Shown here: one piece after another, positions 36,675 through 59,580 of the stretch
Numbering within the stretch: position 1 is the first letter of the stretch
Layout of the letters: each line of letters begins with the position of its first letter
Assembly (NCBI RefSeq): GCF_016026235.1
Contig: NZ_CP065613.1
Length of the DNA: 64,000 bases
From: Escherichia coli
GTDB taxonomy: Bacteria > Pseudomonadota > Gammaproteobacteria > Enterobacterales > Enterobacteriaceae
Reading direction: 5' to 3' (one strand)
Program-made: the position numbers and the translations under genes
The notes under the pieces: generated by a model
Database searches by the model: none
Told to the model about the DNA's origin: nothing
The model's input: the letters and a program-made list of their open reading frames with translations, nothing else

Positions 36675-38822
36675 TTATTTTTTGCTTTCTTCTTTCAATA
36701 CCTTAACGGTATAGCGGCCATCAGCCTGACGGTATGCACCGTGAATATCGGTTTCAAAGCCCGGATAGTGAGCGCCGATTTCACACAGCATCTGCAGGAA
36801 CTCCAGAACCGGACGGCTTTCTTCGGTGATCATTTCACCCGGCATTACCAGAGGAACTCCCGGCGGATATGGAAGGATCATATTGGCGTTAATACGACCT
36901 ACCATTTCGTCGAGGTAAACTTCTTCGGTCATACCGTGCAGCTCTTTCTGGAACGCAGCATACGGAGTCATTACCATTGTCGGCAGCACTTCAAATGCGC
37001 GATACATCAGATCCGGCAGATTGTGGTGAACAATCAGTTTGTGGATATTCTGAGCCAGTTCCTGAATACGCATGTTTTCATAGAATTCAGGATCTTCACG
37101 ATACAGAGACGGCAGCATGTTTTTCACACGCAGGTTCAGGTCGAACGCACGTTTGAAGTCAGTCAGAGCACGCAGCAGGCTCAGTGCTTTGGTCTTATCG
37201 ATACCGATGCTGAACAGGAACAGCAGGTTATACGGACCGGTTTTCTCAACAACGATGCCATGTTCGTCGAGGTATTTCGCCACGATGCTGGCCGGAATAC
37301 CAAAGTCGCTCATGGTGCCGTCTTTTTCCATCCCCGGAGTCAGCAGGGTGACTTTGATCGGGTCAAGATACATGTGCTCGTTATCGATGTTTTTGAAGCC
37401 GTGCCAGGTGCTGTCAGAACGCAGCGGCCAGCATTCAGTCGTATCGATATGATCCGGCTGCCATACATCAAAGAACCAGCCATCAGATTCCGTTCTCAGA
37501 CGTTTGATCTCTTTACGGAATTTGATCGCACGTTCAATGGAACCGTTGATCAGACGTTTACCTGCATTGCCTTTCATCATCGCCGCAGCGGTTTCAGTGG
37601 ACGCCACGATACCGTAGTGAGGAGAAGTGGTGGTGTGCATCATGTAGGCTTCGTTAAAGGTTTCTTCGTTTACGTCACCTTTAACGTGGATCATGGAAGC
37701 CTGAGAGAACGCCGCCAGCAGTTTGTGAGTGGACTGGGTTTCGTAAATCACTTTCCCTTCTACACGGCCACCGCTCATACCGCATTTACCTTCGTAAATC
37801 GGTGAGAAGTTGGTGTAAGGCACCCACGCGGAGTCAAAGTGGATGGATTTCACATCCAGTGTTTTCTTGATGAAGTCGGTGTTGTACAGCAGACCATCAT
37901 AGGTAGAGTTGGTAATTACAGCATGTACCGGCCAGGTTGCGTTTGGTGTTTCTTTCACGCGCTTAGCAATGGTAGCGTGCTGGAATTCACTCTGTGGGAT
38001 ACCACCAAGAATACCGTAAGCGTTACGGGTCGGGCGGAAATAGATTGGCGTAACATCGCTCATCATCATCAGGTGGGTCAGCGATTTGTGGCAGTTACGG
38101 TCAATCAGAATGGTGCTGCCTGCCGGAGCAGAGTACATGCCAACAATTTTGTTCGCAGTGGAAGTACCGTTGGTCACCATGTAGCTGCGGTCTGCGTTAA
38201 AGACGCGAGCGATATACTGTTCTGCTTCTTTGTGTGGACCACTGTGATCCAGCAGAGAACCCAGTTCAGATACTGAAATGGAAATATCAGATTTCATGGT
38301 ATTCGGACCAAAGAAATCATAGAACAGGCTACCTACCGGGCTTTTCTGAAATGCAGTACCGCCCATGTGACCAGGAGTACAGAAAGTATATTTACCTTCA
38401 CGAACATATTTAAACAGTGCTTTAGTCAGCGGAGGCAGAATAGTGTTGATATATTCGTCAGTGGTCTGCTTGATCTTATTAGCAATATCTTCAGCAGCAC
38501 CCAGCGCATATTCAAAGAAGCTAATCTGTAAACGCAGGTCATTCAGGCTTACATCGAGAGTGGAATACGTATTAGCGAACGCGTACAACGGCAGGTTCTC
38601 GTTCATTTTGCTAATTTCTTCGCACAGCTCGAGATTATATTTATCCCAGTCAAAAATAACGCCGCACAGACGCGCATTGTTTTCGATCAGTTTTAATAAG
38701 TCGTCACGGTCGTTCGGGTAAACAATCTGGAAGTTCAGACGTTCAAGCGCGCGATGAAGTTCACGGATGGGTTCTTCTTTAAAATAAACCCCCATGTGAT
38801 TCAATATTGCAATAACGTTCAT
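36675..38822 (-). CDS. cadA: inducible lysine decarboxylase
   Basis: Start MNVIAILNHMGVYFKEEPIRELH; 715 aa; intact. Confidence 0.94.
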   Translation of the reverse strand: MNVIAILNHMGVYFKEEPIRELHRALERLNFQIVYPNDRDDLLKLIENNARLCGVIFDWDKYNLELCEEISKMNENLPLYAFANTYSTLDVSLNDLRLQISFFEYALGAAEDIANKIKQTTDEYINTILPPLTKALFKYVREGKYTFCTPGHMGGTAFQKSPVGSLFYDFFGPNTMKSDISISVSELGSLLDHSGPHKEAEQYIARVFNADRSYMVTNGTSTANKIVGMYSAPAGSTILIDRNCHKSLTHLMMMSDVTPIYFRPTRNAYGILGGIPQSEFQHATIAKRVKETPNATWPVHAVITNSTYDGLLYNTDFIKKTLDVKSIHFDSAWVPYTNFSPIYEGKCGMSGGRVEGKVIYETQSTHKLLAAFSQASMIHVKGDVNEETFNEAYMMHTTTSPHYGIVASTETAAAMMKGNAGKRLINGSIERAIKFRKEIKRLRTESDGWFFDVWQPDHIDTTECWPLRSDSTWHGFKNIDNEHMYLDPIKVTLLTPGMEKDGTMSDFGIPASIVAKYLDEHGIVVEKTGPYNLLFLFSIGIDKTKALSLLRALTDFKRAFDLNLRVKNMLPSLYREDPEFYENMRIQELAQNIHKLIVHHNLPDLMYRAFEVLPTMVMTPYAAFQKELHGMTEEVYLDEMVGRINANMILPYPPGVPLVMPGEMITEESRPVLEFLQMLCEIGAHYPGFETDIHGAYRQADGRYTVKVLKEESKK

Positions 38823-38901: not shown

Positions 38902-40236
38902 TTAATGTGCGTTAGACGCGGTGTGGTTATCCATTGAGTGGCTCTGGCGCTCGTGCATTTTGCGAGCGTAGAACATCAGGATAATCAGGCTGACGATGAA
39001 GGTACCTGCCAGCTCGAAGGAGCTTGCGCCCATCAGCGCGATGAAGCAGAACACGCAACCCAGTACAGAGCAGATCAGGCTGACAAAGTTGCGGATGTTA
39101 ACGCCTTCAAAACGAATCAGGTCAACGCAAGAGTAGAAGTACGGCAGCATAGTCAGCAGTACTGCGATACCGGTCAGTTCACCGAACAGGTCAGATGCTT
39201 TACCACCGGCAGAGTTCATCAGAGTGATGAGGATCATCAGGGCAGTCATTTTCACTGCAGCCAGCAGCAGACCTTTTTTCGGAATACCGTTGCTGTCGAC
39301 TTCACCATAAACTTTCGGGAAGTTACCGTCGTTAGCGGCACGTACACCTGCCTGGCCTACCAACATCATCCAGGATCCCAGAGAAGTCAGGCACGCAAAG
39401 GCGGTGAATGCAGAAACCAGCGGCGCAGCCCAGTTACCGAGGATGGTTGAAGCACTGATTGCAAACGGAGCACCGGAAGCTGCCATTACAGAAGATGGAT
39501 ACATACCGGAAAGCACCTGAGTCGCAGCGATGTAAACAATACCTGCTAAACCAGTACCCAGCATGGTTGCCAGCGGAACGGTACGTTTCGGGTTTTTAAC
39601 CATACCAGTACTTACTGCTGCGGATTCAACACCCACGAAGGCCCACAGGCAGAGCAGAATACTTTTAATGATCGCATGACCATCAGTGGTATCCGCAGTA
39701 TTCCAGTTAGCTGCATAAGTTGCCGCATCAAACCAATGCCAGCCAACAATAGCAGTCATCACCACAGGAATAAGAACCAGCACCAGACCAATAGTGGTTA
39801 AACGGCTTACCCAAGTACCGCCGAGCATATTTACAAAGGTAAATACCCAGACGATAGCAATACAGGCGATACCCGCCGGAACAGGATCATTTAATACTGG
39901 GAAGAAGGTGGAAAGATAAGATACCGCGGTAATACCAATCGCCAGGTTACCAATCCAGTTAGCATGGTAATAAAGAACACCTGTCTGAAAACCAAATGCA
40001 GGGGAAATTTCTCCGGCATAAGCAATTGGGCCACCTTGTTGCGGGTTTTTTGTTGCCAGTCGGGCATATACATACGCCAGCGACATTGCACCAATAATAG
40101 AGATAATCCAACCCCAGATAGCAATACCACCGATACTTGCTAGGTTCGCAGGTAATAATGCAATACCGCTCCCCATCATATTACCGGCAACAACACCGGT
40201 ACAGGCAAATAGCCCGATCTTCTTGGCAGAACTCAT
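38902..40236 (-). CDS. cadB: lysine:cadaverine antiporter
   Basis: 444 aa APC transporter; intact. Confidence 0.93.
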   Translation of the reverse strand: MSSAKKIGLFACTGVVAGNMMGSGIALLPANLASIGGIAIWGWIISIIGAMSLAYVYARLATKNPQQGGPIAYAGEISPAFGFQTGVLYYHANWIGNLAIGITAVSYLSTFFPVLNDPVPAGIACIAIVWVFTFVNMLGGTWVSRLTTIGLVLVLIPVVMTAIVGWHWFDAATYAANWNTADTTDGHAIIKSILLCLWAFVGVESAAVSTGMVKNPKRTVPLATMLGTGLAGIVYIAATQVLSGMYPSSVMAASGAPFAISASTILGNWAAPLVSAFTAFACLTSLGSWMMLVGQAGVRAANDGNFPKVYGEVDSNGIPKKGLLLAAVKMTALMILITLMNSAGGKASDLFGELTGIAVLLTMLPYFYSCVDLIRFEGVNIRNFVSLICSVLGCVFCFIALMGASSFELAGTFIVSLIILMFYARKMHERQSHSMDNHTASNAH

Positions 40237-40601: not shown

Positions 40602-41510
40602 TTATTCTGAAGCGAGAAATTTGTCGAGATAAGGTACAACATAAGGAACAGAAGTCTGGAATATACCATTTTCAATCCAGTAAAGGGTGTTTGCCCCTGG
40701 GCGTAAATTAAAGGCGGTGAGATATGCATCAGCCGCTTCCCGGTTCATCCCCTTCATTTCATAAACCTTGCCAAGCAACACATAATTTAGCCAGGACATT
40801 TCAAGATCAATGCCAGTATTTATCGCCTGGTAAGACTCATCTGTTTTACCTTTTACCAGAGCACTGACCGCTTTTATTTGATATATAATGGACAGGTTGT
40901 TCAATTCCGGCAGTGTAACAATGTTGTCTATTTCTGTGTTCAGTGCTGCTAATTGTTTTTCATCTAAAGGGTGTTGAGAATGGCGCACGATATCAACTAA
41001 TGCTTTTTCTGCTCTCGCGTAGGTAAATTCTGGGGATGATTGAACAATCTCACCTAATAATTCACTGGCACGATTCAATGATTTGTCATCGCCATGCAGT
41101 AAATAATCATGAGCCTGATAAAAATTAGTTAATAACGCACCACGATGAGGCAAAATTTGCTGGAGCGTCTCCTGCATTCGTTGTGGCCACGGTTGGTTTA
41201 ACGCTTTTGATAAACTCTCCAGTAAATCATTTTGAATCGCCAGCTGATTACCGTTAGTGATGACATAACGTTTATCCAGCATGGTTGAACCATCTGCATT
41301 GTCTACCAATTTTATCGACATAAAGCATTGTTGAGCACGGTATTGGCGCTGATTAACAAAGGCAATAGATAATGTTTTACCGGAACTGCTCGGTTCATCA
41401 ATGTTGTAGTTGATTTTGTCATGCACCATAAAGGTGGAGAAGGTGTTAAGTGATGTCGCCACCAAATCACCCACGCCTATCGCGTAAGAGAGCTGATACG
41501 GGGAACTCCA

Positions 41511-42803
41511 CTGAGGGATCCCCAGAAAATTTAGTAAACCATTATCATATTGGTATACCGTTGCTGTAGAACTTTCAGCCCTGCGTCAAGTGACAGTGTG
41601 TTTAGTATGAGTGGAGAATGTCGAATCACATTCTCCGCCAGTTTTAATAACGAGATGACTCGCCTGTGCTTCACTGTATTTGCCTGATATTTATGATGTA
41701 TCCCTTTGTTTTCCAGGCTGAAACCGCTTAACCACATAATGATACTGGCTAATGTTGCGATCAGACTCAATACCGTGACCCGCCCGGATGAATGACTGGC
41801 ACCAAACCGTAGTCCAAATCCCCAGCGAGGATTTTTTCATCCCTGAAATTTTGCTCAATTTGCATTCTACGGCTGTATAATTTCATTACCTGTTTTGGCG
41901 AGAACTCAGTACTGTTTGTGAAAATAAACCATGGTGATTTCCCGGCAGTACGAGCTTTAGCCGTCACCGATGGTCTGGTTGCTCTTTCCTTCGAGCGTTT
42001 AAATCTACGACCTTTAGGCTTACTTTTATAAAGATAAAAATGCCCTTCATGTTGTGCATTTTTATCTCGACCCAGCAGGCCTTCACCTAAATAAATTGCT
42101 GTCGTTGATGCTTTTGTGCCTGAGTCCGACACCTTTTCCCAGCCATTACCAACATTGTAATAATGATTGCCCAGTACCCGGCAAATATAGGTCCAGCCAC
42201 GGGAGCGGAGCTGTTGGAACCATCGCCCCTGAAAACCGGCATCTGTAATAACAATGACATCAGTCCCGGGGGAAAAGCACTCAGCAAGCGATTCCAGAAA
42301 ACGCTCATGTACATCTGCATTCGCTGTCTGTGATGATGGAACGACACAACTCATCAACGGTAAAGAACGCCCGTCACATGCCAGGCTTGCCCGCAAAAGC
42401 TGAAAACGAGAGGCATGATAAGCACTCCAGTCAATGAGTATCACAACACGAGACATTCCCCGCGTAATCTTTTGGGTAATTCGCTGAAAAATGGTGGAAA
42501 CCTCATTTTGCAAATGTCGATTCCCCAACAGTCGATCCACCCGCTTTATTTTGTTTTTAACTGATGCCGTACCGGTTAAATGACGCCCGATACTGGTAAG
42601 TGTGAGGGAAGCGCCATTTATTACAGCATTAGTTGCGTCAATCAGTGATTTTTGACGGTAAAGATGCAAAGGGGCCAGTATGTTGTTAAGGAAATTTTGG
42701 CATAATGAACGTGCAGGCATAGTGGTGATCTCCTTGAAATTGTTAGCACAATCAATTAGATCACATCTCACTATGCCTGTCTTGTTTTCTGGGGATTCCT
42801 CAG
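41511..42803 (-). mobile_element. IS10-like insertion sequence (IS4 family), ~1293 bp, inserted in cadC
   Basis: Imperfect terminal inverted repeats CTGAGGGATCCCCAGAAAA (41511..) and revcomp CTGAGGAATCCCCAGAAAA (..42803); flanking direct repeat gggaactcc(a) at 41501..41510 and 42804..42813; encodes IS10-related transposase. Confidence 0.85.
41531..42720 (-). pseudogene. IS10-family DDE transposase, disrupted by a frameshift near 41797..41808
   Basis: ATG 42720 preceded by AAGGAGAT SD; motifs KRVDRLLGNRHL, ILIDWS, ITDAGF, YSRRMQIEQNFRDEK align with IS10 transposase; frame ends at 41767 and C-terminal homology (QANTVKHRRV...) continues in another frame (41531..41770). Confidence 0.75.
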
Positions 42804-44018
42804 GGGAACTCCAGCTGTTACAACTTTTATTTACCATATTAATGTCAATATCGCGTGGATTGAGCAAAATACGCGATTTGCTCATCGGAAGACGTGTATC
42901 AAGACTTGAAAACGCTACCAGTGCTACACAGATACCTAAGGACAACAGGAAAAAAAACCATACCCAAAAGGTAGTGAATCGTTTGCTTTTAACTGGGGAT
43001 TGTTCAGGTGGCGTTGCGGTGTTTTGAATGTTAAGGCTGTGGGAGGGAGAATCTGTGGCAGGAACCGCCTCTGGTATAGGGGGAGGCGAAGATAGCATTA
43101 TTTCCTCTCCCTCTTCTTCGCTGTACCAGATAACCGGCACCATTAATTTATAGCCGCGCTTTGGTACAGTAGCGATATAGACAGGACTATCTTCATCATT
43201 ATCTTTTAATGAATTACGTAGTTCTGAGATACTCTGCGTCACAACGTGATTGGTGACAATACTTCTCTTCCAGACATTATCGATAAGTTCATCCCTGCTA
43301 AGTACTTCGCCACTGTGTTGAGCAAAGAAAACCAGAAGATCGATTAATCTCGGCTCAAGGGTAAGTTGACGCCCATTGCGGCTAATTTGGTTTATGGACG
43401 GAGTAACAAGCCATTCGCCAACGCGAACTACAGGTTGTTGCATAATAGAAACTCATTCGAAAAGGGAATGATGCAATGATAATTGCCACAACCTATTTTT
43501 ACCATCTATAGATGGGTTTATTTACATATTATTGGTGAATGCAAGACGTTATTTTTACCAGCCATAAACTTCTTGATTACATGGTATTACGAAAGGATTT
43601 TACTGAGAACCAGAAGTAATATTCCTTACCATCAAAATTCATCATCTTTGCCAAAGAAAAATGTTCAGAAAATAATCCATGGAAAATTGTCCGGAGCGCT
43701 TACTATTTTAATGGATTGTTAGTCTTTGCATGAGCAAGGGGACTGATACATTTCTCTTTGTTCTCATTCAGAAAATCTCATCAGTCGCCGTTCAGACCGG
43801 TGTTGTGCTTTATGGATGCGTTACGCTCCTGATGACGTCATTTGACGTTCAACAGCATCACGGGGTCGCACGACATTTCACGTCAGTTAGTGCTATAGCT
43901 CAGGAACAAATTTTCCCGAATTGGGATATGCCCGCAAATTGCTGGTGATGTGGGGAGAATCTGGTTGAGTTCGGTAGAATTGATTTGGCGGCAGAACGCT
44001 TAAATCGTGGCGTCCTGA

Positions 44019-56137: not shown

Positions 56138-57166
56138 TTACTGCTGGCGTAGCTGGAGATCCAGCGGCGTTTTGCTGGGTTCGCCGCCGATTTCTCGCGC
56201 CAGTTTCGGCACCAGATAACCCGACACCAATGTCAGCAACTCACGCATAATCTGCCGTGCTTCGTCATCACTCACCATAAAATGCGCCGCGCCCTGTACT
56301 TTATCGAGCACATGCAGGTAATACGGCATCACGCCGGCATCGAACAACGCATTACTCAGGTTTGCCAACGTTTGTGCGTTATCGTTCACACCACGTAACA
56401 GAACGCTCTGGTTAAGCAGGGTGACACCGACACGGCGCAATTTAGCCATCGCCTGACGGAACGTTTCATCTACCTCATTGGCATGATTGATGTGATTCAC
56501 CAGCAAGATTTGCAGCGTAGAACGGGCAAAGCGTTCAACCAGCGCCTCGGTGATGCGTGCCGGGATCACAATCGGCAGACGACTGTGAATCCGCAGACGT
56601 TTGATATGCGGGATGGCTTCCAGTTGTGTGAGCAACCAGTCCAGCTCGTGATCTTTCGCCATCAGCGGATCGCCGCCGGAGAAAATCATCTCGTCCAGTT
56701 CCGGATGCGCAGCAACATACTCAAGTGCAGTTTGCCAGTTACGCTTGTTGCCCTGATTTTCGGCATAGGGGAAGTGACGACGGAAGCAATAGCGGCAATT
56801 TACCGCGCAGCCGCCTTTGACCAGCAAAAGCGCCCGGTTGTGGTATTTATGCAACAAACCAGGCACTACGCTGTGCTGTTCTTCCAGTGGGTCGGTGGAG
56901 AATCCGGGTGCGACGACAAACTCATCTTGCGAGGTAAGTACCTGACGCAAAAGAGGATCGCCCGGATTGCCTTTCTCCATTCGATCGATAAATGAGCGGG
57001 GCACACGCAGGGCAAACAGCTTTTTGGCGCTGCGTCCGGCCAACAGTTTTTCGTCCGCGTCTATATTCAAAAGACGCAGAAGTTCATCAGGATCGGTCAC
57101 AACATCGGCAAGTTGCGTTAACCAATCTTCTCTGGATGGGGTATTTAGGGTTACAATATGCGCCAT
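56138..57166 (-). CDS. epmB: EF-P beta-lysylation lysine 2,3-aminomutase
   Basis: 342 aa; radical-SAM CxxxCxxC (CAVNCRYCFRR). Confidence 0.92.
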   Translation of the reverse strand: MAHIVTLNTPSREDWLTQLADVVTDPDELLRLLNIDADEKLLAGRSAKKLFALRVPRSFIDRMEKGNPGDPLLRQVLTSQDEFVVAPGFSTDPLEEQHSVVPGLLHKYHNRALLLVKGGCAVNCRYCFRRHFPYAENQGNKRNWQTALEYVAAHPELDEMIFSGGDPLMAKDHELDWLLTQLEAIPHIKRLRIHSRLPIVIPARITEALVERFARSTLQILLVNHINHANEVDETFRQAMAKLRRVGVTLLNQSVLLRGVNDNAQTLANLSNALFDAGVMPYYLHVLDKVQGAAHFMVSDDEARQIMRELLTLVSGYLVPKLAREIGGEPSKTPLDLQLRQQ

Positions 57167-57207: not shown

Positions 57208-57774
57208 ATGGCAACGTACTATAGCAACGATTTTCGTGCTGGTCTTAAAATCATGTTAGACGGCGAACCTTACGCGGTTGAAGCGAGTGAATTCGTAAAA
57301 CCGGGTAAAGGCCAGGCATTTGCTCGCGTTAAACTGCGTCGTCTGCTGACCGGTACTCGCGTAGAAAAAACCTTCAAATCTACTGATTCCGCTGAAGGCG
57401 CTGATGTTGTCGATATGAACCTGACTTACCTGTACAACGACGGTGAGTTCTGGCACTTCATGAACAACGAAACTTTCGAGCAGCTGTCTGCTGATGCAAA
57501 AGCAATTGGCGATAACGCTAAATGGCTGCTGGATCAGGCAGAGTGTATCGTAACTCTGTGGAATGGTCAGCCGATCTCCGTTACTCCGCCGAACTTCGTT
57601 GAACTGGAAATCGTTGATACCGATCCGGGCCTGAAAGGTGATACCGCAGGTACTGGCGGCAAACCGGCTACCCTGTCTACTGGCGCTGTGGTTAAAGTTC
57701 CGCTGTTCGTACAAATCGGCGAAGTCATCAAAGTGGATACCCGCTCTGGTGAATACGTCTCTCGCGTGAAGTAA
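57208..57774 (+). CDS. efp: elongation factor P
   Basis: 188 aa; [22 protein letters not shown]... with KPGKGQA loop. Confidence 0.97.
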
Positions 57775-58208: not shown

Positions 58209-58244
58209 GCAATATGATCCTACCCACGTAATATGGACACAGGC

Positions 58245-59111
58245 CTAAGCGAGGTTCTGGTTTTCAAATTGTTCCGGACTGAGGCCGCCACACCAACTGT
58301 GCCGCCGCCACCGATTGTAATCACATTCGATATAATTAAACACCGTTGCCCGCATTATTTCCCAGCTGATAAAGTGTTCTCCATGGATACATTCCACTTT
58401 CAGCGAATGAAAGAAGCTTTCCACGCAGGCATTATCGTAGCAGCAACCTTTTGCGCTCATACTTCCACGCAGATTATGCCGCTTCAGTTGCGCCTGATAA
58501 TCTGCTGAACAGTACTGGCCTCCACGGTCCGTGTGAACGATAACGTTCCGGGGCCTCTTACGCCGCCACAGCGCCATCTGCAGGGCATCGCAGGCCAGTT
58601 GCGCCGTCATGCGTGGCGACATTGACCAGCCAATAACGGCACGTGACCACAGGTCAATGACCACTGCCAGATACAGCCAGCCTTCATCTGTACGTAAGTA
58701 CGTGATGTCTCCTGCCCACTTCTGGTTCGGGCCACTGGCGTAAAAATCCTGCTCCAACAGATTTTCTGACACAGGCAGGCCGTGTGCGCGGTAGCTGACC
58801 GGGCTGAACTTCCGGGAGGCATTTGCCCTCAGTCCCTGACGGCGCAGGCTTGCCGCCACGGTTTTTACGTTAAAGGGGTAACCCTGAGCACGCAGTTCAT
58901 CCGTCAGGCGTGGGGCACCGTAACGCTGTTTTGACCGGGTAAAAGCCGCGAGGACAACGCTGTCGCAGTGTTGGCGGAACTGCTGACGCGTGCTTATCCT
59001 TGTCCGCCGCTGACACCACGTATACCAGCCGCTGCGGGCCACCCGGAACACGCGGCACATTGCTTTGATGCTGAACTCAGCCTGATGTTTTTCAATAAAG
59101 ACATACTTCAT
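58245..59111 (-). CDS. insF: IS3 transposase OrfB (DDE integrase domain)
   Basis: 288 aa; [21 protein letters not shown]...; ATGA overlap with orfA stop. Confidence 0.9.
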
Positions 59112-59407
59112 TTCAGGCGCTTCGCGAAGTATGTCGCGGCCTTTTGGAGGATAGCCAGCTCTTCATCCCGTTCTGCCAGCTGGCGTTTGAGACGTGCAAT
59201 CTCGGTAGACATCTCCAGTTCACGTTCAGAAGACGTCTGCTGATTTTGCTGTTTACTGCGCCAGTTGTAGAGCTGTGATTCATACAGGCTGAGTTCACGG
59301 GCTGCGGCAGTAACACCGATGCGTTCAGCAAGCTTCAGGGCTTCACTGCGAAATTCAGGCGAATGCTGTTTACGGGGTTTTTTACTGGTTGATACTGTTT
59401 TTGTCAT
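59108..59407 (-). CDS. insE: IS3 transposase OrfA (HTH)
   Basis: Start [29 protein letters not shown]; ~99 aa. Confidence 0.88.
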
Positions 59408-59580
59408 GTGAGTCACCTCTGACTGAGAGTTTACTCACTTAGCCGCGTGTCCACTATTGCTGGGTAAGATCAATAACGGTACGACAGCTGTGTCGTGCCG
59501 TTTGTTTTCTCTGCGATAGTCACAAAGGTAATAGTTGAAATTCCCCTGCCACCTGGCAAAATATCCGTTCAACCATCAGC

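Follow-up and report, generated by a model that had tools for sequence, protein, structure and literature searches.

An in-frame CadC-transposase open reading frame at an ISEc60 insertion in Escherichia coli cadC: a probable by-product of transposition with probable loss of CadC function

We analyzed a 64,000-nucleotide stretch of an Escherichia coli chromosome (NCBI RefSeq assembly GCF_016026235.1, contig NZ_CP065613.1; this whole stretch is called the window hereafter), in which cadC is interrupted by a copy of the insertion sequence (IS) ISEc60 and one open reading frame (ORF) runs from the cadC start codon into the transposase gene of the element. The region that holds the cad genes is colinear with that of other E. 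coli, with cadC disrupted and cadBA intact: both cadA (36675..38822, 715 amino acids (aa)) and cadB (38902..40236, 444 aa) lie on the minus strand, as do the features given below unless another strand is named. The 5' part of cadC, which comprises codons 1-213 and the first base of codon 214, occupies 42804..43443, with the native start codon at 43441-43443. The 3' remnant, which comprises codons 215-512 and encodes the periplasmic sensor domain, occupies 40602..41510 and is severed from the start codon and the membrane helix. Between the two parts lies the ISEc60 copy (41511..42803, 1293 bp), an IS10-like member of the IS4 family that matches the reference copies save for one missing A.

The chimeric ORF starts with ATG and spans 558 codons (41767..43443); in a six-frame ORF list it was open from the CadC N-terminus into the transposase, exactly as a first-pass annotation of the window had claimed. 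It consists of CadC residues 1-214, a 27-aa linker encoded by the leader of the element, residues 1-296 of the ISEc60 transposase, and 21 out-of-frame residues. Its translation proceeds from MQQPVVRVGEW... to ...NSWSSP, then through the linker EESPENKTGIVRCDLIDCANNFKEITT to MPARSLCQ..., where the transposase begins, and one peptide that would span the junction is SCNSWSSPEESPENK. The linker, whose sequence had been quoted correctly, is read as (P)EESPENKTGIVRCDLIDCANNFKEITT from the 83-nt IS leader (42721..42803) together with the last cadC base. One and the same polypeptide carries the CadC winged-helix DNA-binding domain of the OmpR/ToxR type (aa 24-100, 43144..43374; Pfam PF00486 Trans_reg_C, E=1.2e-18) and a DDE_Tnp_1 domain (aa 339-537; PF01609, E=7.9e-19). 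A hydropathy scan detected one hydrophobic segment in the chimera, at about aa 156-181 (42901..42978), which is the single transmembrane (TM) helix of CadC in its described topology (PMC6320335, PMC3096576), and none in the transposase part. Both N-terminal features of a CadC-type activator, the OmpR-type winged helix-turn-helix and the single TM helix, are present, and the chimera keeps the PPP motif at aa 120. The retained CadC segment, residues 1-214, includes the DNA-binding domain and its linker, the TM helix, and a periplasmic stretch of 27 residues with Cys208. Pfam and the hydropathy scan agree here with the earlier description of an ORF that holds a winged helix-turn-helix, a TM helix, a linker encoded by the IS end, and the transposase. 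The sensor is not contiguous with the TM helix: CadC_C1 (PF18500, E=6.6e-50) sits in a separate 290-aa ORF (40602..41474), 1.3 kb downstream, and this remnant has neither a TM helix nor translation signals of its own. The whole sensor, Cys272 included, is lost from the chimera, and further cysteines are gained, among them those at aa 227, 232, and 248.

The identity of the insert was established by megablast against 5426 complete E. coli genomes, in which at least 17 annotated ISEc60 copies were 99.2-99.8% identical to it; relative to the reference copies L001 and L002, there is a single 1-nt difference within the element. The termini are 19-bp inverted repeats, CTGAGGAATCCCCAGAAAA at the transposase-proximal end (42785..42803, minus) and CTGAGGGATCCCCAGAAAA at the transposase-distal end (41511..41529, plus), and the transposase contains the IS4-family signature Y-x2-R-x3-E-x6-K (YSRRMQIEQNFRDEK). 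The insert is flanked by a 10-bp target-site duplication, whose upstream copy, TGGAGTTCCC in the cadC sense, is located at 42804..42813 and whose downstream copy is located at 41501..41510. Removal in silico of the IS and one copy of the duplication gave a perfect 512-aa CadC, and this clean restoration indicates simple transposition. Clean target duplications of 10 or 11 bp were found for 13 of 18 ISEc60 copies (L001, L002, L014-L028, and the window copy), and the near-palindromic target consensus GGGATTTCCC was built from these 13; the cadC site agrees with it at 8 of 10 positions. ISEc60 would have transposed simply into codon 214/215 of cadC, where the site suits its preference. The flanks of the 5 other copies do not match, which suggests later recombination between copies, and L020 and L021 were found to lie in tandem.

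No ISEc60 insertion in cadC was detected by megablast among the 5426 complete E. coli genomes, the best query coverage (88%) being that of the IS alone, and the 31-nt cadC::ISEc60 junction was absent from GTDB representative genomes and JGI metagenomes. In the literature searched, no description of a cadC::ISEc60 allele, with its site at codon 214/215, was found, and ISEc60 is named there in two resistance surveys only. The element and the site appear to be new, and the kind of lesion, an IS-made cadC pseudogene, is well known. Through the 290-aa CadC C-terminal ORF, another genome (L003, GCA_040812635.1) was reached; it has no IS in cadC and was rejected as a carrier of the same allele. L003, from an E. 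coli lineage that is unrelated and has diverged by about 1%, has a cadC frameshift that falls precisely within the 10-bp ISEc60 target (L003:3960-3985, which corresponds to window positions 41501-41510 and 42804-42813). Wild-type CTGGAGTTCCCCGTATC is changed there to CTGGATTTCCCGTATC, giving ...NSWISRISSLTR followed by a stop. The new sequence, TGGATTTCCC, resembles the ISEc60 target consensus more closely than the wild type does, and it is not derivable by simply joining the two duplicated flanks; the change may be an excision scar, a hotspot, or a polishing artefact.

The length of the chimera, 558 codons with a 3' end at 41767, is due to a 1-nt deletion in a homopolymer run. The intact ISEc60 transposase has 396 aa (WP_001111632.1), and each of the 17 other ISEc60 copies that were examined has an A7 run and the 396-aa product; only the window copy has A6 (41832..41837). 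The frameshift falls immediately after the K of the Y-x2-R-x3-E-x6-K signature, that is, after residue 296, and the ORF ends 21 codons later, so that the window transposase amounts to 296 native residues and 21 out-of-frame residues. The rest of the coding sequence, for residues 297-396, is out of frame (41531..41831) and is seen as a 79-aa ORF (41531..41770). As judged from its sequence, the window element is a defective (non-autonomous) copy that lacks an intact 396-aa transposase, unless the indel is a sequencing error. Repair of the run to A7 gives a chimera of 637 aa, which matches exactly a product called in the E. coli assembly GCA_900449985.1, where it is named 'transposase [Escherichia coli]'. 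Over 7.9 kb, the window and this assembly are 99.987% identical, and the A6/A7 indel is the sole difference.

A6 may have arisen by a real, recent mutation, or it may be a miscall of the homopolymer. If it were a miscall, the 558-codon length would be an assembly artefact, and the real ORF would be a 637-codon fusion of CadC to the full-length transposase. The exact call of the repaired product in an assembly that differs from the window by this indel only, and A7 in every other copy inspected, are in favor of such an artefact, as is the finding that the 558-aa product had no exact match in a 15-billion-protein collection or in a contig index, in which only the 637-aa form is recorded. However, homopolymer slippage is also frequent as a real mutation, and frameshifted, decayed copies of the ISEc60 family exist. 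Moreover, the frame-breaking indels elsewhere in the 24 kb compared with the nearest complete genome, FDAARGOS_943, belong to that genome and not to the window, which does not look error-prone. We regard an artefact as possible and lean against it.

The fusion as such can be traced to the open leader of the element. From the IS end to the transposase ATG (42718-42720), the 83 nt are free of stops in the transposase phase, and a TGA at position 2 and a TAG at position 31 block the two other phases. Because the transposase phase contains no stop, one sixth of ISEc60 insertions into any ORF are expected to yield a fusion (1/2 for orientation multiplied by 1/3 for phase). In the window, the IS has the same orientation and phase as cadC, as the first-pass annotation had stated: no stop occurs across the junction, and the frame arithmetic agrees. 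An insertion in the sense orientation and in the right phase would let the stop-free leader connect the ORF of the host with that of the transposase. The cadC::transposase fusion is not more than chance would give, and it reflects a general property of ISEc60.

A homology search with the linker and transposase recovered 8 chimeric products, the cadC one included, in which the linker is conserved at 100% identity (P0016-P0023). The other hosts are a TssF-like protein (557 aa), an FAD-binding protein (567 aa, two entries), AldA (680 aa), YdbC (680 aa, E. coli LT-68), a fimbrial usher (664 aa), and a 575-aa protein without a Pfam domain. All junctions read ...(P/S)EESPENKTGIVRCDLIDCANNFKEITTMPARS..., with the host cut at a (P/S) codon that arises from ...CC of the target and CT of the IS end, and the 27-residue linker and the transposase part that follow are both identical. 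A membrane helix ahead of the transposase occurs in the cadC chimera only, and the additional frameshift occurs in the window copy only. The open leader, the expectation of one in six, and the 7 other host::ISEc60 chimeras all bear out the earlier remark that the cadC fusion was 'probably fortuitous'. In public protein records, chimeras of this group are entered like any other protein and bear names such as 'aldehyde dehydrogenase A', 'putative oxidoreductase ydbC', and 'transposase'. Gene callers report long 'fusion proteins' at ISEc60 insertions, and these are better read as a pseudogene plus an IS.

The open phase is limited to the ISEc60 clade: besides the window copy, it was seen in two relatives from E. 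coli (82-85% nucleotide identity) and in one from Klebsiella (89% protein identity). In relatives at 53-70% protein identity, stops in this phase close the leader, and an open leader as a conserved family trait was ruled out on this ground. The leader was also predicted to form a fold-back hairpin in read-through RNA (42714..42779), with an 11-bp outer stem between 42769-42779 and 42714-42724 (CAGGCAUAGUG paired with CACUAUGCCUG) and a 7-bp inner stem. In this predicted structure, the Shine-Dalgarno (SD) sequence (AAGGAG) and the AUG (42718-42720) of the transposase are buried. The predicted fold energy is -43 kcal/mol, compared with -24.1 ± 3.2 for shuffled sequences (z = -5.9). The hairpin was noted in the leaders of the window copy, L005, L006, and L009-L013. 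Across 8 relatives down to 53% protein identity, a small sample, the pairing was kept in 90% of the cells of the comparison versus 29-43% for slid controls, with 2 compensatory pairs; this conservation may be taken as support for the hairpin and not as proof. On read-through RNA from cadC, the hairpin would keep ribosomes from initiating independently at the transposase AUG, and it would not block in-frame ribosomes that elongate from the cadC start. No RNA-OUT-like antisense RNA was matched in Rfam, the pheU tRNA being the only hit, and a consensus scan located no sigma-70 site for a transposase promoter in the leader, where a weak AAGACA-17-TCTAAT candidate was noticed by eye only.

These features raise the alternative that the open leader is an evolved device, in which in-frame read-in bypasses the start-hiding hairpin, and insertion into active genes boosts transposase synthesis. 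A strong SD/AUG hairpin that is conserved to 53% protein identity and does not halt elongating ribosomes would be in line with such a device, as would the 8 recorded chimeras and the 38 ISEc60 places in the single genome of FDAARGOS_943. However, the openness of the leader is not conserved, since in-phase stops occur in the more distant relatives, and chance alone would leave some 28 codons free of stops in about 1 in 4 cases. In the case of cadC, the host helix would export the transposase. IS4-family transposases bind the ends through their N-terminus, which an N-terminal extension would be expected to disturb, and this likewise counts against the device. We therefore consider an evolved function of the open leader very unlikely.

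The lineage of the window provides a context for the loss of cadC. FDAARGOS_943 is 99.9% identical to the window over 24 kb, and because its plasmid carries ipaH9.8, ospG, and ospC2, it is an enteroinvasive E. coli (EIEC). According to the passages of two papers that summarize Casalino et al. 2003, cadaverine loss in EIEC typically occurs via inactivation of cadC with cadBA intact and is rescued by a cadC plasmid, and an IS1 insertion in cadC was described for strain 6.81 (PMC4156367, PMC5723341). The window fits this known pathoadaptive silencing of cad in EIEC, with a lysine decarboxylase (LDC)-negative phenotype to be expected. The cadC gene of FDAARGOS_943 itself (L007:16521-18057) contains no IS and is annotated as 'frameshifted', with two 1-nt deletions, one from T8 to T7 at nt 487 and the other at nt 767. 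These deletions represent either an independent inactivation in a sister lineage, if they are real, or assembly errors. As they do not lie at the target site, an ISEc60 excision scar was ruled out as their origin.

CadC is a single-span membrane protein with its N-terminus inside and its C-terminus outside, and its periplasmic domain senses pH (PMC5430869, PMC6320335, PMC3096576) and drives the dimerization that its activity needs (PMC5430869). Cells contain 1-3 molecules of native CadC, and elongation factor P (EF-P) is required for its translation (PMC6320335). The insertion would split the DNA-binding domain and membrane helix from the pH-sensing, dimerizing periplasmic domain. Should the weak cadC signals, which depend on EF-P, give rise to the chimera, the product would be a membrane protein whose tail of about 370 residues (27 CadC residues, the linker, and the truncated transposase) would be directed to the periplasm and be exported, jammed, or degraded. 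A transposase part in the periplasm would be out of reach of DNA and catalytically incomplete; folding and dimerization of the tail are unlikely, and the tail is probably degraded. When the DNA-binding domain and TM helix of CadC were joined to foreign periplasmic domains, the products were off as monomers and became constitutive only once the foreign part dimerized (PMC8514426, PMC8410942), and unprotected or unpartnered foreign domains of such chimeras were degraded in E. coli (PMC8410942, PMC8514426). Since monomeric CadC modules are inactive in published work, plain loss of CadC function is most likely, and we infer an inactive, unstable chimera and a cadC null phenotype as the default. 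The intact cadBA would then not be activated, and no cadaverine would be produced. Taken together, these data suggest that the chimeric ORF is very probably a mechanical by-product of simple ISEc60 transposition, the effect of which is loss of CadC function in an EIEC-type lineage.

Some observations weigh against this interpretation. The cadBA genes are fully intact, a state also compatible with an operon still in use. Cys208 is orphaned, its partner Cys272 being gone, and new cysteines appear in what would be an oxidizing compartment (PMC3096576), where stray cysteines can activate CadC fusions (PMC8514426). In addition, the invasion-plasmid genes are known only from FDAARGOS_943, the nearest complete relative, and the window is chromosomal.

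The first-pass annotation had gone further and had suggested that a signal-blind CadC with altered activity could result, a possibility that is unsupported, given that CadC requires dimerization via its periplasmic domain (PMC5430869) and that monomeric fusions are off (PMC8514426, PMC8410942). In its strongest form, the proposal would be that the chimera is a stable, signal-blind activator of cadBA, either constitutive or pH-independent but LysP-controlled, whose tail dimerizes through disulfides of Cys208 or the new cysteines or through transposase self-association. A dimerizing protein in place of the CadC sensor does render Pcad constitutive, and stray periplasmic cysteines can dimerize CadC fusions covalently and switch them on (PMC8514426). 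Furthermore, C208A and C272A changes loosen the pH control of CadC (PMC3096576), no stop interrupts the cadC-IS junction, and cadBA are intact in the window. However, the tail is a truncated cytoplasmic enzyme without its last 100 residues, for which periplasmic folding is unlikely; E. coli degrades periplasmic domains of CadC chimeras when they lack a partner (PMC8410942); and a cell has only 1-3 copies of CadC (PMC6320335). In the EIEC strains covered by the summarizing passages, cadC lesions with intact cadBA were LDC-negative and rescued by wild-type cadC (PMC4156367), and cadaverine production is counter-selected in that pathotype (PMC5723341). An activating chimera is very unlikely, and so is the reading that this apparent knock-out allele is really a pH-blind CadC that keeps cadBA, or further acid-resistance genes under CadC influence, active or rewired in an invasive lineage. 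If true, it would be a natural counterpart of engineered CadC receptors, and an allele scored as a pathoadaptive knock-out would represent regulatory rewiring. As a loss of CadC function, the allele would be one more independent case of cadC as a preferred target when invasive E. coli lose cadaverine production, with little importance beyond annotation. Several aspects were missed in the first-pass annotation, namely, the frameshifted transposase, the 637-codon sister form, the generic nature of ISEc60 chimeras, the periplasmic placement of the tail, and the EIEC pattern of cadC loss.

Elsewhere in the window, epmB (56138-57166) and efp (57208-57774), which belong to the EF-P system that translation of the CadC polyproline motif requires (PMC6320335), lie 13 kb from cadC; this closeness is the normal K-12 gene order and a coincidence. 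A complete IS3 copy of 1258 bp is located at 58215-59472, between efp and sugE, with orfA at 59108-59416 and orfB at 58245-59111 on the minus strand. This copy accounts for a gap of about 1.26 kb in alignments to most E. coli genomes.

As a mobile element, ISEc60 resembles IS10/Tn10 in its IS4-family membership, its YREK DDE transposase, its symmetric target preference, and a leader predicted to pair with the transposase start. Its inverted repeat, CTGAGGAATCCCC..., is similar to that of IS10, and its target duplication here is 10 bp, compared with 9 bp for IS10. Davis, Simons and Kleckner reportedly described in 1985 a fold-back inhibition of IS10, in which mRNA structure guards against outside transcription. 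ISEc60 differs from IS10 in that no RNA-OUT match was obtained in Rfam and no consensus promoter was located. The leader of IS200 has a comparable structure that sequesters the SD sequence (PMC4513863), as the ISEc60 hairpin is predicted to do. By analogy, the ISEc60 hairpin, which is apparently undescribed, may provide an IS10/IS200-like protection against outside transcription.

As a lesion, the allele shares with the pathoadaptive loss of cadC in EIEC and Shigella the gene that is hit, an IS as the mutagen, and a lineage related to pINV-carrying E. coli; it differs from the described lesions in that ISEc60 and codon 214/215 were not found among them in the literature searched. As a protein, the chimera has the same layout as the engineered CadC receptors of EMeRALD (PMC8410942) and periplasmic PACE (pPACE; PMC8514426), in which the DNA-binding domain, juxtamembrane linker, and TM helix of CadC are followed by a non-CadC periplasmic part. 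However, the EMeRALD and pPACE receptors carry folded, secretion-competent domains that were chosen to dimerize on demand, and tuned promoters drive their expression, whereas the tail of the cadC chimera is a truncated cytoplasmic transposase and its expression would depend on the very weak native cadC signals.

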